From NCBI GenBank assembly GCA_965116905.1, contig OZ220732.1:3584001-3648000 (forward strand): a DNA stretch of 64,000 bases, written 5' to 3'. This stretch comes from Longimicrobiales bacterium. GTDB lineage: Bacteria; Gemmatimonadota; Gemmatimonadetes; Longimicrobiales; Gaopeijiaceae. The notes beneath the pieces are model-generated. The model had not been told where the DNA came from. It saw only the letters and a list, made by a program, of their open reading frames with translations, and made no database searches. The translations under genes and the position numbers were made by a program. This document shows positions 1,260-21,168 of this stretch, one piece after another. The first letter of the stretch is position 1; every line of letters starts with the position of its first letter.

Positions 1260-1299
1260 TCAGCGCAACGGCGGCACGGTCAGCGCAGCGGCGGCACGA
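1260..1299. repeat. 20-bp tandem duplication including the stop codon of the M8-like gene
   Basis: tcagcgcaacggcggcacgg followed by tcagcgcagcggcggcacga. Confidence 0.8.
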
Positions 1300-3481
1300 T
1301 CCGCACCAAACGCCCTTTCTGGTCGAACACGCGGACCGGGATCCGGGCGATATCGTTGCTCAGATCGATCACCGGCCCCGTGGCCTGGGCGGCAGCGTCG
1401 GGCGCTCCCGACCCAGTGACCCGGTAGGATTCCGCCGCGCTCAGGTTAACCCCATAGCCCAGGTCGGCCATCGACTCGATCGTGATCCTGCTCAGCGGTT
1501 CCCGGCCAATGGTAAGGAAGGGCGTCATCAGCTCAGCTTCGAGGACCGATTCCCTCCAATGTGAATCCGCCGAGCCCTGGCGTCCTCCACTCTCGACGGG
1601 AACCTTGGCCCCCCTGTACGACCGGCCTCCGCTCGCGTCAAACGCCGACCGCGCAAGCGGCCCGACGAAGTGGGTATCGGCGTTCGAGTTTCCGGAGCGC
1701 GAGGGGTTGCGAAGGAGATCATGGTCGCCCCACAGCGTGCCGAAGCCCAGGACGTGCGCGTATTCGTGAGTGACGGTGTTGACGAGCGCGCCCTGGGCCT
1801 CCAGGCGGTTGACGTCGTCCTCGTCCAGTTCGATGAAGCCTCTGAGTGCCTCCTTATAGATCGTGTCGGACGCTTCAAACCGGATTAGACGCTGGCTGCA
1901 GGGAGCCGCCCGTCCGAGAATCCCACCCGCCCCGTCGATCGAGTCGATCGTGATGTAGATGCGAATGTCGTCAATCACTTCGCCCGCCGCGATCGCAGGT
2001 GATCCCGGCCCGCAAGCACCGGCAGGAACAGCCTCCTGGTAGGTGAGATCGTCGGCGCCTCGCACGATGACCGACTCCCATCGCTTGGCCGCATCCCGCA
2101 TCACCTGGTCCTGCGCGGCCGTTCCGCCGTCGAGGAACACCAGTTCGATGTCGAAGGGCTCCACAGGCTTTCCGCCGACCGTCACGGTGAGCGTCGAGGG
2201 ACCGAATTCGGTGAACGCGTGAACCGCGACGTGATAGGTCCCCATTCGCGTCGGCACCATCTGGCACAGTTCATCCGAAGCGGCGTTGCCACTCAGGCAC
2301 CGGTACTTGTAGTGGTGGTCCGGCCGGGAATCGTAGTGGACGAACATGTCGGCATCGCCCGACCCTCCCGACAACTCGACATTGAGGGCTTCGTCGGAGG
2401 CCTCGGTGATGTCGATCCGGAAGAGGAGCACCTCGTTCACCGTGGACGAGGAAACGGTTACGGCCTGTCCCAGCGCAATCGCCTCCTGGTGCAGGACCGT
2501 GAGCTGCTTTTCGCCCGTGTTGTTGGCCCTCTCCCACTCGTCGATACCGCCGTCGGGGTCAATGACGACCGCGAGACGGCGCGTCCCCTGGTCGAACGGA
2601 CCCGCCGCCGCAAAGCTCACGTGCACCGTGTCCTCCGACTGCAGTTGCGCCACCTGAACCGTCTCGAGGACAGCTCCGTCCACCAGAAGACTCACGGCGA
2701 AGCTGTCCGGACTCTGGCCATCGCCCTTGTTTCCGATGAGCGCGCCGACCTCGATCATCTCGAGCGTACTGGGCTCCTCCCGCGACACGTCGAACCGCTC
2801 GACGCTCAGATCCGGCAGCGGGTTGTCCGACGTGGCTCTTGCGGCGGCGATGTTCTGGACGCCTCCCGGGGCCCAGATCGTCAGGGACTGCGCGCCGAAC
2901 TTGCCGCCGAGCGTCCATGTCGTCGAAGCCTGCCCCTGGTCGTCCGTCACCACCGAATCCGGGCTTGCCGAACCGCTCTCCGCACTGGGCCTGAAGACCA
3001 CGGGCAGACCCGACACGCCAAAGCCTCCCCGGTCCTCCACCTGGACCACCAGCGGCTCGGGCAGGGGTTCGTTCCTCAGCGCCTCCTGGTTGTTCCCCGA
3101 CACGATCCCGACCGCCGATGCCCGCTGCTGCACCGTCACCTGGGCCGTCGCGCTGATGTCCGCAGTGCTGGCCGTCAGCGTGGCCATGCCGTTCCCCACG
3201 GCCGTCACCGAACCGTTGGCGTCGACGGTGAAGACGCTGTCGTCGGAACCCGACCACGTCACCGTGACCGCCATCGACGAGCCAAACTGGTCGCGCACGT
3301 TCGCACTGAATGGCGTGGCCTGGGTGATGTAGGTGAGCGTCGCGGACGCCGGCTCGATCGTGATCGTCGCGGGGCGCGGAGGCTCGGGCGGCGTTACCGG
3401 ACCCGTGTCCCCACCGCCGCAACCCGCAACCGCGGCCAGAAGGAGCGTGCGTGCGACGAGCGTGGGCGCGGAGGTCTTCAT
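1280..3481 (-). CDS. Lipoprotein zinc metalloprotease: Ig-like/CARDB/PPC domains plus leishmanolysin (M8)-like catalytic domain
   Basis: Lipobox LAAVAGC; Big-like repeats; CARDB-like PDLSV...IDEWERANN; PPC-like GGSGDADMFV; HEYAHVLGFG, SHWRE and ELMT motifs. ATG at 3481 follows GAGG. Confidence 0.8.
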   Translation of the reverse strand: MKTSAPTLVARTLLLAAVAGCGGGDTGPVTPPEPPRPATITIEPASATLTYITQATPFSANVRDQFGSSMAVTVTWSGSDDSVFTVDANGSVTAVGNGMATLTASTADISATAQVTVQQRASAVGIVSGNNQEALRNEPLPEPLVVQVEDRGGFGVSGLPVVFRPSAESGSASPDSVVTDDQGQASTTWTLGGKFGAQSLTIWAPGGVQNIAAARATSDNPLPDLSVERFDVSREEPSTLEMIEVGALIGNKGDGQSPDSFAVSLLVDGAVLETVQVAQLQSEDTVHVSFAAAGPFDQGTRRLAVVIDPDGGIDEWERANNTGEKQLTVLHQEAIALGQAVTVSSSTVNEVLLFRIDITEASDEALNVELSGGSGDADMFVHYDSRPDHHYKYRCLSGNAASDELCQMVPTRMGTYHVAVHAFTEFGPSTLTVTVGGKPVEPFDIELVFLDGGTAAQDQVMRDAAKRWESVIVRGADDLTYQEAVPAGACGPGSPAIAAGEVIDDIRIYITIDSIDGAGGILGRAAPCSQRLIRFEASDTIYKEALRGFIELDEDDVNRLEAQGALVNTVTHEYAHVLGFGTLWGDHDLLRNPSRSGNSNADTHFVGPLARSAFDASGGRSYRGAKVPVESGGRQGSADSHWRESVLEAELMTPFLTIGREPLSRITIESMADLGYGVNLSAAESYRVTGSGAPDAAAQATGPVIDLSNDIARIPVRVFDQKGRLVRIVPPLR

Positions 3482-3500
3482 GTTGGCAATCCTCAAGACG

Positions 3501-3538
3501 AGCGATGGTTCCCGTCAACAGCGATGGTTCCCGTCAAT
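3501..3538. repeat. 19-bp tandem repeat x2 upstream of the metalloprotease
   Basis: agcgatggttcccgtcaac / agcgatggttcccgtcaat; each copy contains TTGACG on the minus strand. Confidence 0.85.
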
Positions 3539-3610
3539 ATAGTGCGCCATGGGGACTACGGACGAGAACTTGCGGCGCAGGATCCGGGGTCAGCGGGCCC
3601 GGCGGAAGCA

Positions 3611-3638
3611 AGATACTTAACCAAAGTGTTTAGTGTTG
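3611..3638 (+). repeat. Left 28-bp dif-like/tyrosine-recombinase-type site (11-6-11)
   Basis: agatacttaac-caaagt-gtttagtgttg; an inverted copy lies at 5182-5209. Confidence 0.7.
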
Positions 3639-3798
3639 GCCTGGCGAGCGCCCCGTGAGTCGGCTCCTCGTTCCCCAGCCGACCGGTTCCGTCCAGCCAG
3701 GACGCCTTGCGATACGCTACCCGAACATTTCCCGAACTGTGGGGTATAAGGAGGTGAGAACACAACGCGCCCACCCCTGACCTCGGGATCAGACAAGC

Positions 3799-5190
3799 AT
3801 GCCTACTTCCTCTACTTCCCCCGCCGCCGGCCAGCCCGCCCCTTCCCCCTCCTCCAACCCCAACTCGCTCGCCGATCCGCTCGGCGACGAGATCGCCACG
3901 CTCTGCGCGCACATCAACGCCGCCACCTACCGGCTCCTCTGCCTGCTCAGGACCTACGACGAGGAGGGGCGCTGGCAGGGCTTCCGCTCCTGCGCCCACT
4001 GGCTCTCCTGGCGCACCGGCATCTCGATCGGGCCCGCCCGCGAGAAGATGCGCGTCGCCCGCTGCCTCGCCTCCCTGCCCCGGATCTCCAAGGCTTTGTC
4101 CAGGGGGAAGCTCTCCTACTCGAAGGCGCGGGCCCTGACCCGCGTCGCCACGCCCGAGAACGAGGAGGAACTCCTCACCTTCGCCGACCACGGCACCACC
4201 GCCCACGTCGAGCGCCTCGTCCGCAACCTGCGCAGGCTGAGCCGGAGCGAGGACGACCAGGCCGAGAGCGCCGAGCGCCGGCACCTCTACCTCTACACCG
4301 CCGACGACGGCAACTACGAGATCCGCGGCCGGCTCAGCCCCGAAGTGGGCAGCATGCTCCTCCGGGCGCTCGAGGTGGCCGAACGGAAGCTCTACCGCGA
4401 GCAGCGCGAGGCCGGCACCCACAAAAAGACCACCGCCAACCAGCGCCGGGCCGACGCCCTGGGGCTGTGGCTGGAGGAGCAAGTGAAGCCCGAGGTCCAG
4501 CTTGTCGTCCACTCGTTCGAGGGGGGTGGCGCCAGCGACGGCGTGGCGGGAGGCGCGCCGGGAGGCGCCGCGGCCGGCGTGGTCACGGAAGAGGGCGTGC
4601 GCGTTTCAGCTGAAACGTCTTTGCGGCTCGCCAGCGACGCGGAAGTCGTGCCGATCAGGCGGGATAGGAGAGGCTGCGTGCTCGACGTGGGACGGCGGCG
4701 GCGGACCGTGGACTGGCGGCTCCGCAAGGCACTGGACGCGCGCGACGGCGGCTGCCGCTTCCCCGGATGCGGATCGCGGCTCCGCACCCACGCCCACCAC
4801 ATCCTCCCCTGGGCCAAAGGCGGCGACACGGCCATGGACAACCTCGTGCTGCTGTGTCCGTTGCATCACCGCGCGGTCCACGAGGGGGGTTGGCAGGTGG
4901 AGATGGACGAGGGGGGCGTGCCGCGGTTCTTCAATCCGCTGGGGGTGCGCATGCCTGTGGCTCCCGAGGCCCCGGACATCGGCGGCTTGCTGCCCGACGG
5001 CAACGGGGAGGCGGCCCCGGCGAACCGCCCGCCACCCGCACCGCAGGACTTCGGGCTCACCCGCTGGCACGACCGGCCGGACATCGAGGTCTGGCCCGGA
5101 ACCACCCTGTGGCACGGCGAACGCATCGACTGGAACTGGGCGCTCGACTGGTTCCTGAGTGAGGAGGGCGGCGGCGCGGGCGTACGCTAA
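3799..5190 (+). CDS. DUF222-domain HNH endonuclease (13E12-repeat family-like)
   Basis: N-terminal G.RSCAHWL...ARE.MRVAR.L; QRRADAL; C-terminal RDGGCRFPGC...HAHHI.PW..GG.T.MDNLVLLCPLHHRAVH. Confidence 0.9.
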   Translation: MPTSSTSPAAGQPAPSPSSNPNSLADPLGDEIATLCAHINAATYRLLCLLRTYDEEGRWQGFRSCAHWLSWRTGISIGPAREKMRVARCLASLPRISKALSRGKLSYSKARALTRVATPENEEELLTFADHGTTAHVERLVRNLRRLSRSEDDQAESAERRHLYLYTADDGNYEIRGRLSPEVGSMLLRALEVAERKLYREQREAGTHKKTTANQRRADALGLWLEEQVKPEVQLVVHSFEGGGASDGVAGGAPGGAAAGVVTEEGVRVSAETSLRLASDAEVVPIRRDRRGCVLDVGRRRRTVDWRLRKALDARDGGCRFPGCGSRLRTHAHHILPWAKGGDTAMDNLVLLCPLHHRAVHEGGWQVEMDEGGVPRFFNPLGVRMPVAPEAPDIGGLLPDGNGEAAPANRPPPAPQDFGLTRWHDRPDIEVWPGTTLWHGERIDWNWALDWFLSEEGGGAGVR

Positions 5191-5209
5191 ACAATATTGT
5201 TAAGTATCG
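5182..5209 (-). repeat. Right 28-bp dif-like site, overlapping the HNH stop codon
   Basis: Reverse complement is cgatacttaac-aatatt-gtttagcgtac; arms match the left site 10/11 and 8/11. Confidence 0.7.
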
Positions 5210-5224
5210 ACCCCGGCCACTCCC

Positions 5225-5923
5225 TCAGCTCCGCCGCCGCCTCTCCAGGTACACCGGCAGGTAAAGCAGCCCGAAGAAGACCGCGGCCGCCGCCTCCAGC
5301 TTGAGCAGATACCACGGCCAGGGCAGGAAGATGAAGGGTGACGCGGTGTCCGGGACCGCGCACAGGTACATGTAGTTGCTGTCCAGCAGCAGGTTGACCG
5401 GCGTCAGGACGGCGGCCATGACGTTCAGTGCGACGAACGCTCTGACCAGCGACCTGAAGTTGGGCCGCATCCCCAGCCCGAAAGTGGCGAACAGCGCTGC
5501 GACTACGATGGCCCCGTGGGAGATGAAGTACTGGAAGAAGAGGTAGTGCGGAAAGCCCTCGGACAGCTCCGGCGTCACCATTGCGTTCGTGGCGCCCGCG
5601 AGTCCCCAGAAGTAGACGAGATCGAAGGTCCACCGCCGGCGGAAGAGCAGCATCGCCGCCGACAGCAGGATGGTCATCCCACAGACGTGGAGCGGCAGGT
5701 GCTCGCGGACGAACACCTCGCCGCCCTCCGTGGCGTACCGGTAGATCCAGCCCACGGACTGGTTGGCCAGCAACACGACGGCCAGACCGATGCACAGCCC
5801 CCGCGTGACCCGGCGCGAACCGGAACGCCGCGCCACGGTCGTCACGACGGCGGCAACCGCCACCATCAGCACCATGGCAGCGATGTGGGGCGGGCCAAAA
5901 AGCTGAAAGGGAGGGGCGGACAT
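5225..5923 (-). CDS. TIGR02206/YwaF family integral membrane protein
   Basis: FQLFGPPH, LPLHVC, YFISHG and NYMYL motifs; multiple TM helices. Confidence 0.8.
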   Translation of the reverse strand: MSAPPFQLFGPPHIAAMVLMVAVAAVVTTVARRSGSRRVTRGLCIGLAVVLLANQSVGWIYRYATEGGEVFVREHLPLHVCGMTILLSAAMLLFRRRWTFDLVYFWGLAGATNAMVTPELSEGFPHYLFFQYFISHGAIVVAALFATFGLGMRPNFRSLVRAFVALNVMAAVLTPVNLLLDSNYMYLCAVPDTASPFIFLPWPWYLLKLEAAAAVFFGLLYLPVYLERRRRS

Positions 5924-20140: not shown

Positions 20141-21115
20141 CTACCCGAAGTCCTCGTAGAACCTCGCCACGGCCCCGCGGCCAGCCGACTCCCCGCGGCT
20201 GTAGTACGCGGGCATCCTCTCCGACTTCCAGCGCCCGGCAACCATGATCGCGGTCAGGCCCATCCCCTTTGCGGTGAGGTCCTGCGCCATCCCCACGCGC
20301 GGCGAATGGCCGGTGAAGCCCTCGCCGAGGCCCGCCGCGCGCGCCATCGCGGCGATTCGGTTGGAGATCGTGCGACCCGTGGCGATGCCGAAGACCCGTG
20401 CATCCGGATCGGGGTTGGGCGGCCGGATGTAGCGGAGCGCGATGGCGGCCTTCAGCCCGACGAACTGTACCGCCGAGGTCGCAGAGGTCTTGGAACGCCG
20501 GATCGTGAGGCGTGCGCTTCCATCGTGGACGAACGCGATGTCCCGCCAGCGAAGCTCGGCGGCTTCTCCCCTGCGCAACAACGCGTCGCGCATCACCGAC
20601 ACCATGGCGATGTCGACGAGGCCCCTGCGGTGGGCGAAGCCGGCCGACTCGGTGCGGCCCGACGGTCCGGTGCGCGGCAGACACGCGGTCTCCTCGATCC
20701 GCTTGAGCAACTGCGCCGTCAGGCCCCGCGCCTGGCGCGGATTGTTGCGGCCCTTGTCCGTCGCCTGGTTCCGCAGTCCGGCCAGCGTGTTGCGCACCCC
20801 CTCCGACGACGCCGGATTCGGTTGGCCCGCGGTCCGGTGATAGTAGCCGATCGCCTTGCGGTCCATCTCCAGTGACGACATCGAGAGGCCCTGATCGGTC
20901 CGATAGACCAGATAGGCCGCCACCGTCATCGGGTCGGCCGGCAGCGACTGGAGTCCTTCGCCCTCCGCCCACTCCCGGAACTTCCTCCAGGCCCCGGCGT
21001 AGGCCCGGCGCGTGGCCGGGCGCCGACTTCCCTCGACTGCCGCGAGAATCGCCTCGACGTAGTGGTCGGCCACCTTCGCCGCCTCGACCGGCAGGTCACG
21101 ATCGCGCTGCTTCAT
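20141..21115 (-). CDS. Cre-like tyrosine recombinase/integrase
   Basis: SAM-like N domain (TRRAY...W..F..W), DALLRRGE (R), RSKT (K), GHSPR (HxxR), GRW (W), MPAYY (Y); GGAGG RBS. Confidence 0.9.
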   Translation of the reverse strand: MKQRDRDLPVEAAKVADHYVEAILAAVEGSRRPATRRAYAGAWRKFREWAEGEGLQSLPADPMTVAAYLVYRTDQGLSMSSLEMDRKAIGYYHRTAGQPNPASSEGVRNTLAGLRNQATDKGRNNPRQARGLTAQLLKRIEETACLPRTGPSGRTESAGFAHRRGLVDIAMVSVMRDALLRRGEAAELRWRDIAFVHDGSARLTIRRSKTSATSAVQFVGLKAAIALRYIRPPNPDPDARVFGIATGRTISNRIAAMARAAGLGEGFTGHSPRVGMAQDLTAKGMGLTAIMVAGRWKSERMPAYYSRGESAGRGAVARFYEDFG

Positions 21116-21168
21116 GCTCTTCCTCCACACCGTGAATCCATCGTCCCCAGCACACACGCGAATTATTT

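Follow-up and report, generated by a model that had tools for sequence, protein, structure and literature searches.

Two 28-bp palindromes flanking a DUF222-HNH nuclease gene in a Longimicrobiales bacterium are likely operators of an ArsR/SmtB-type repressor

Xer/dif and pdif recombination sites are 28-bp, AT-rich dyads with two 11-bp arms around a 6-bp spacer (11-6-11). Among ArsR proteins, Rv2034 of M. tuberculosis, whose gene shares an operon with a polyketide_cyc2 gene, represses its own expression at a 20-bp palindrome, CCGTAAGT-N4-ACTTACGG, according to an excerpt of PMC3338718. In M. smegmatis, the ArsR protein MSMEG_6762 binds the promoter region of the HNH nuclease gene MSMEG_1275, whose expression rises (excerpt of PMC9416677). 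The 13E12 genes of M. tuberculosis are bound by LexA, as stated in part of PMC3381160. Titles and abstract openings on DUF222-HNH, DUF222-ParB and ArsR-SRPBCC operators contained no description of an operator-bracketed nuclease. A search conducted mainly outside subscription papers for ArsR with AHSA1 and a palindrome, or for an ArsR regulon in Gemmatimonadota, returned nothing, and the excerpt of PMC8509827 gives no motif.

In the window (the whole stretch of 64,000 nucleotides that was analysed), a 13E12-like gene encoding a DUF222 and HNH nuclease of 463 aa occupies 3799..5190 on the plus strand (Pfam PF02720, E 2.5e-17; PF01844, E 1.6e-7). Its HNH nuclease domain was assigned to residues about 302-376 (4702..4926, plus strand) by Pfam and structure comparison. 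The left 28-bp palindromic site, at 3611..3638, reads AGATACTTAAC-CAAAGT-GTTTAGTGTTG and has a matrix score of 40.6; the right site, at 5182..5209, reads CGATACTTAAC-AATATT-GTTTAGCGTAC on the minus strand and scores 41.1. Being palindromes, the sites are listed without a strand. With up to 3 mismatches allowed, the site pattern gave these 2 matches in the window, against a chance mean of 0.02, and 0/100 shuffles reached 2.

Several observations of the initial annotation were confirmed. The sites bracket exactly one gene, the single open reading frame at 3799-5190; the arms are conserved (10/11 and 8/11 identical) while the spacers differ (3/6); the right site supplies the stop codon of the nuclease (TAA, 5188-5190); and the 15-16 bases outside both sites show no target duplication. 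The description of the pair as inverted was only partly borne out: the near-palindromic sites are real, but for the same reason their orientation carries little information, and arms compared as direct repeats are still identical at 6/11 and 8/11 positions. The inward-facing arm variant is not constant among relatives. Both neighbouring genes are host genes outside the module and lie on the minus strand, a divergent M8 peptidase gene on the left (1280..3496) and a convergent YwaF/TMEM164 gene on the right (5225..5923); they adjoin each other in relatives that lack the nuclease. Upstream of the M8 gene (window 3503-3539), 19 bp are duplicated in tandem; the same stretch is single in genomes G001, G005 and G050.

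Compared with the REP13E12/DUF222-HNH repeats, as described in the excerpt of PMC3381160, the nuclease likewise combines DUF222 and HNH domains, is multicopy and has a LexA-type box upstream. Unlike those repeats, many copies here are bracketed by putative host repressor sites, and the gene has an in-frame parS-like palindrome and a predicted ParB-like N-terminal fold. As in the MSMEG_6762-MSMEG_1275 pair (excerpt of PMC9416677), an ArsR-family protein, here the candidate binder, is found with a toxic HNH nuclease gene; in contrast to that pair, the sites lie at both ends and the proposed effect is repression, the opposite sign. The excerpt makes no reference to DUF222.

The genome search that the initial annotation had suggested recovered a whole family of sites beyond the two in the window. 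The host genome (G000; one contig, 4.21 Mb, 67.7% GC, 97% complete) holds 24 of them, all scoring above 24 on a symmetric matrix for which three locally shuffled genomes gave 0-2 matches at 14 and none at 24. The 28-bp sites are thus not unique to the nuclease gene. The family consensus is ATACTWAAC-N6-GTTWAGTAT, with 19 different spacers among the 24 sites. The family occupies 20 loci, of which 7 lie between tandem genes, 5 between convergent and 4 between divergent genes, and 4 inside genes in frame; the enrichment between convergent genes was not significant (5/16, p = 0.086). Single occurrence at many unrelated genes, as expected of a transcription-factor site, had been named beforehand as evidence against a recombination module, and this is what the family exhibits. 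The strict pattern had 7 matches in genome_contigs, all titled Longimicrobiales or Gemmatimonadota, and there were 0 exact matches to the site in the phage sequences of viral_contigs. DNA nearly identical to that of the uncultured host was found in runs labelled sponge metagenome. The tandem sites were also considered for helical phasing, an idea that was dropped because their spacings (42, 43, 52 and 84 bp in the host genome) vary in relatives (34, 36, 37, 45, 54 and 74 bp).

The site in thiI is in frame, with no gap across the 15 codons shown. At this position, 13 motif-bearing genomes have matrix scores of 34-44 and AT-rich codons, G017 scores 15.5, and G045 and G046 score 12.5, while 15/16 motif-free genomes score below -3. 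The thiI site therefore arose through substitution, not insertion.

An ArsR/SmtB-type gene of 110 residues (G000 1,476,399-1,476,731), the first gene of an ArsR-AHSA1 pair, has its called start 49 bp from one member of the family. The winged-helix assignment was obtained with Pfam (HTH_5/HTH_20) and NF033788, the latter over its cut-off. At 18/22 arm bases the left nuclease site is identical to the site preceding this gene, and the right site at 17/22. The arrangement recalls Rv2034-Rv2035 of M. tuberculosis (excerpt of PMC3338718), which also has a small ArsR winged-helix protein with an adjoining lipid-binding-fold gene and a long palindrome with a short spacer before the ArsR gene itself.

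Across 53 genomes of the genus, the motif was all-or-none, with 5-37 matches in 22 genomes and 0 in 31. The unpublished genome G223 underlies none of the conclusions. Motif and ArsR orthologue (called at E 2e-45 or better) occurred together in 21 genomes, the motif alone in 1, ArsR alone in 0 and neither in 31; these genomes are kin, not independent. The motif-only genome, G013, is fragmented into 190 contigs. A site lies 43-117 bp before the ArsR gene in 20/21 orthologues, and an AHSA1 gene is beside ArsR in 20/21. The exception is G045, which has ArsR and 6-7 sites, none of them preceding the ArsR gene. A 17-genome ThiI clade (support 98/97, internal order partly open) holds most of the positives plus 4 motif-free genomes, and two motif-positive genomes fall outside it, so the match between motif and ArsR is not one single split. 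Because the genomes are kin, another gene of the same distribution could be the binder; the candidates compared were ArsR and the Cre-like gene of the window.

The dyad is also found at other ArsR genes. Sites of paralogous ArsRs share the AAC-N6-GTT core but differ in their outer bases, and the two such operators examined in the host genome are single-copy at 2 mismatches. An AAC-N6-GTT dyad precedes 14/23 other ArsR homologues of the phylum (3 weak or truncated, 6 none), compared to 0/83 control windows. In five genomes of other Gemmatimonadota families, the site pattern occurs 1-3 times per genome; of three otherwise unexplained matches in those families, 2 lie on an ArsR start codon and 1 before an unrelated gene. 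Unlike these related operators, the sites in the genus reach 5-37 matches per genome and lie inside genes and at gene ends. Co-occurrence with ArsR, the position before the ArsR gene and the same dyad at other ArsRs make it likely that the 28-bp sites are operators of the ArsR/SmtB-type repressor, an identity that we regard as well supported by these sequence comparisons.

A CCGAAC-N5-CCGAAC direct repeat with an 11-bp period at 3721..3737 (plus strand) is likely a LexA/SOS box; the nuclease unit usually begins with it on the left. The repeat is present upstream of most close nuclease copies, and TTCG(G) repeats of the same period lie upstream of lexA and recA. Its presence at both kinds of gene, together with the LexA binding of 13E12 genes, makes SOS (LexA) control of the nuclease via the CCGAAC repeat likely. 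The repeat is followed by TATAAG, resembling a -10 element, and GAGGTGAGA, resembling a ribosome-binding site (3745..3759, plus strand). This predicted part of the nuclease promoter is conserved among copies; a consensus promoter scan made no call at 3745-3759. Among copies, the left site lies 6-110 bp before the LexA-type box, clear of the nuclease promoter, which rules out simple promoter occlusion as the mechanism. LexA was rejected as the binder of the 28-mer, since neither lexA nor recA is preceded by such a site. A second LexA-like gene, divergent in its C-terminal half, was noted at G000 3,061,600-3,062,307.

The N-terminal part of the nuclease was examined by structure prediction. The helical domain at residues about 38-150 (3910..4248, plus strand; AlphaFold model, pLDDT 84) is predicted to have a ParB/Noc/Spo0J/KorB-like DNA-binding fold, although all matches are sub-threshold. 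The top Foldseek rows were consistently ParB/Noc, at E 0.055 or weaker. VIA gave Z 7.3 to 6s6h (rmsd 8.5, 116 aligned) and 6.4 to Spo0J (rmsd 2.3, 89 aligned), within a range of 5.3-7.3 for ParB-type matches and below the tool's bar of 8. An hhalign comparison of the DUF222 profile with the host ParB was not significant (probability 0.4%). The gene also contains a perfect 16-bp palindrome, CGTTTCAGCTGAAACG, at 4602..4617 (no strand assigned), read in frame as VSAET, which we take to resemble parS. The genome contains 19 copies of its 14-bp core, with none in 2.39-3.58 Mb; two copies overlap an ArsR-type site, and the palindrome is often accompanied by 30-60 bp of nuclease coding sequence. Many nuclease copies of G014 and G073 encode the variants VPAET and VPAGT at this position.

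With a probability of roughly 0.7, we propose that the paired sites are ArsR operators around a probably SOS-inducible nuclease, which would be restrained from both ends by bound repressor. An ArsR dimer would bind both 28-bp sites, under the control of the AHSA1 partner or a small lipophilic ligand, and the toxic, damage-inducible nuclease would be held in check from outside its promoter, by a read-through block or by looping. We infer repressor function at the nuclease; more tentatively, sites away from promoters (at gene ends, inside genes and at the nuclease ends) may serve as loop anchors or roadblocks and so restrict read-through into a toxic gene. The operators of some lineages would have become passengers of a unit copied between loci.

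How tightly the sites go with the nuclease was assessed from its paralogues. The expectation that these carry paired sites held for the only close paralogue in the host genome, 94% identical and bracketed by sites (G000 1,144,388-1,145,761), and for most close copies in G014 and G073, but failed for four distant paralogues of the host (42-45% identical), which lack bracketing sites. Among 34 close copies from motif-bearing genomes, 30 have both flanks, and 18 of these carry two sites, 5 one and 7 none; one of the one-site copies has a left site 5 bp past the cut-off, giving 19/30 if counted. Some of the close copies were chosen for visible paired sites, and together the copies represent about 7 loci with a full pair, 2 with a single site and 6 without any. 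The 8 copies from motif-free genomes have no site, and one of them occupies the locus of the host paralogue. Operators are unnecessary for the nuclease gene to occupy a locus.

The distant DUF222-HNH clade is represented in the host genome at 319,741, 634,054, 1,012,590 and 4,179,054. Three whole copies of this clade are bounded by long inverted repeats with the core GTTTCCGCGGCAAA, resembling the internal palindrome of the window's clade, and similar inverted-repeat ends were seen in L043 and L044. These repeats look like element ends more than the 28-bp sites do.

Three loci were compared with and without the module. Between M8 and YwaF, 7/30 YwaF loci have the nuclease (two only as a contig-end tail), all with the right site, and 23/30, including those of 7 motif-bearing genomes, have neither gene nor site; the insertion at this position is old. 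At trpA, site, gene and site are present as one block, only in G014 and G073, which indicates that sites can travel with the module, and 22/22 empty trpA alleles have no site, 18 of them from motif-bearing genomes. At ridA, the gene is present with one or more sites in 4 genomes; 6 others have 1-3 sites but no gene, and two of these keep the internal palindrome of the nuclease gene. We read the sites in these 6/19 informative nuclease-free ridA alleles as remnants. The idea of a mobile nuclease module is supported in part, by the block at trpA; neither host Xer nor the Cre-like gene fits, and the empty alleles lack a target site (0/22 at trpA, 0/23 at YwaF).

These loci bear on a rather unlikely alternative, in which the ArsR operators double as the working ends of the module and gene conversion or short-repeat recombination copies or deletes it with no dedicated recombinase. 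Conversion induced by a nick or break would start or stop at the sites, since they are the last sequence shared between loci, and deletion would leave one or two sites behind. The trpA block and the ridA alleles agree with this, as does the homology between the two host copies, which extends to the right site's outer edge and no further. In paralogous copies of G014 and G073, homology stops at the left site, as at an element end: on the left, inner flanks show homology (mean local scores of 32 and 22 vs about 11 shuffled), whereas outer flanks do not (12.5 and 12.0 vs 11.6 and 12.3). However, the right outer flanks of the same copies remain homologous past the site (16.9 and 17.5 vs 13.2 and 12.5 shuffled), siteless copies occur in motif-bearing and motif-free genomes alike, and both the empty trpA alleles and the empty M8-YwaF loci of the 7 motif-bearing genomes are siteless. 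Contigs of 3 runs contained no joint skipping or inverting the module, a weak test in view of the loss of rare forms from contigs. A related scenario, which we consider similarly doubtful, is that a local repressor turned into a genome-wide DNA-marking protein, that point mutations created its operator within housekeeping genes and at gene junctions, and that the selfish SOS nuclease captured one of these operators at each end. The pair would insulate the gene and anchor its copying or loss by crossover, leaving solo operators, and the unit would have host-operator ends with no transposase or recombinase.

It is improbable that the family is instead a chromosome-organising site of another lineage-specific protein, with the copy at the ArsR gene being one among many. 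This reading draws on the placement of the sites: 14/24 lie in one 175-kb stretch (2.204-2.379 Mb), only 1/24 lies less than 0.55 Mb from dif, distances from dif are similar in G001 and G014, and some copies are inside genes. However, the region around dif is made up of core genes and is poor in paralogues and in AT islands generally, which may make the avoidance of sites there trivial, and the 175-kb cluster is a single accessory island, found in synteny and likewise rich in sites in relatives. The dyad at ArsR starts of other families, at 1-3 copies per genome, also argues against it. A role as terminus boundary or in nucleoid occlusion was set aside because it is inseparable from core versus accessory territory; the host genome has only one ParB_N gene. 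No cognate regulator was singled out within the island among the 83 of its 146 called proteins that were scanned. The site-rich island also encodes a methyltransferase with a C-terminal sterol methyltransferase domain (PF08498; L004:8812-9912).

The initial annotation had proposed that a tyrosine recombinase, either host Xer or the Cre-like enzyme encoded at window 20141, moves or inverts the nuclease gene; an integron-type enzyme was considered as well. The sites share with dif and pdif modules the 28-bp AT-rich 11-6-11 dyad and the pairing around one gene; ArsR operators meet the same geometry, which is therefore not diagnostic for dif. The host dif is canonical and single (G000 2,929,977, at the GC-skew maximum, 0.66 Mb from the nuclease sites), and the genome encodes a XerD above its cut-off and a XerC-like protein. 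Its arms have only 2-3/11 bases in common with those of the sites, and dif scores -34 on the site matrix. Unlike dif and pdif, the sites have both arms of one type rather than a C arm and a D arm, and occur in frame in genes; at two loci the empty alleles contain no target site. No IntI integrase was found in the 97%-complete host genome (best TIGR02249 score 82.8 bits vs a cut-off of 265, the hits being XerC/D), which speaks against the attC/attI reading, and serine resolvase PF00239 was not found there. The Cre-like gene is present in 21/22 motif-bearing genomes but also in 18/31 motif-free ones, and no 28-bp site lies near it in the window. The Cre-like tyrosine recombinases at window 20141-21157 and G000 3,416,964 are syntenic in close relatives, with up to 7 matches per genome. 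The nuclease has the same orientation at M8-YwaF in the 5 genomes assembled enough to tell. Recombination sites of dif/pdif/attC type are not supported, and the tyrosine-recombinase reading, which could otherwise appeal to varied spacers, site pairs around many copies, the Cre-like gene in 21/22 genomes and one arm that fits RYYYAAC, is largely refuted and very improbable given the unlike host dif, the Cre-like distribution, the missing integrase and resolvase, the gapless in-frame sites in housekeeping genes, the siteless empty alleles and the constant gene orientation.

Other dispersed elements were recorded in the host genome. A second AT-rich family occupies about 25 places (e.g. 178,967; 1,906,825; 2,296,610) and consists of two TGTAAA-N6-TTTACA-like boxes 3 bp apart, with 3 copies in frame in genes; it also adjoins nuclease copies, and in relatives it recurs at the same junctions. 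A third dyad family (ATACGTATTTT...AAAATAC) is present at 453,732, 614,602, 997,369, 1,649,321, 3,790,995 and 4,166,111. One of its copies precedes a 592-aa gene, presumably AlbA/Schlafen-like. Seventeen tRNA genes, a third of the 50 called, lie within 2 kb at 1,296,478-1,298,432.

With the sites read as likely ArsR operators, the recombination story is replaced by a named protein-site pair, a 110-residue repressor and a 28-bp site. Operators of ArsR-AHSA1 pairs normally occur once or a few times per genome; here there are dozens, imposing AT-rich codons on a 68% GC genome. The nuclease family, for whose control and mobility there is so far no explanation, has the putative operators flanking many of its copies on either side. 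Should sites outside promoters serve as roadblocks, loop anchors or conversion boundaries, ArsR operators would have a use for which the literature searched gave no precedent.
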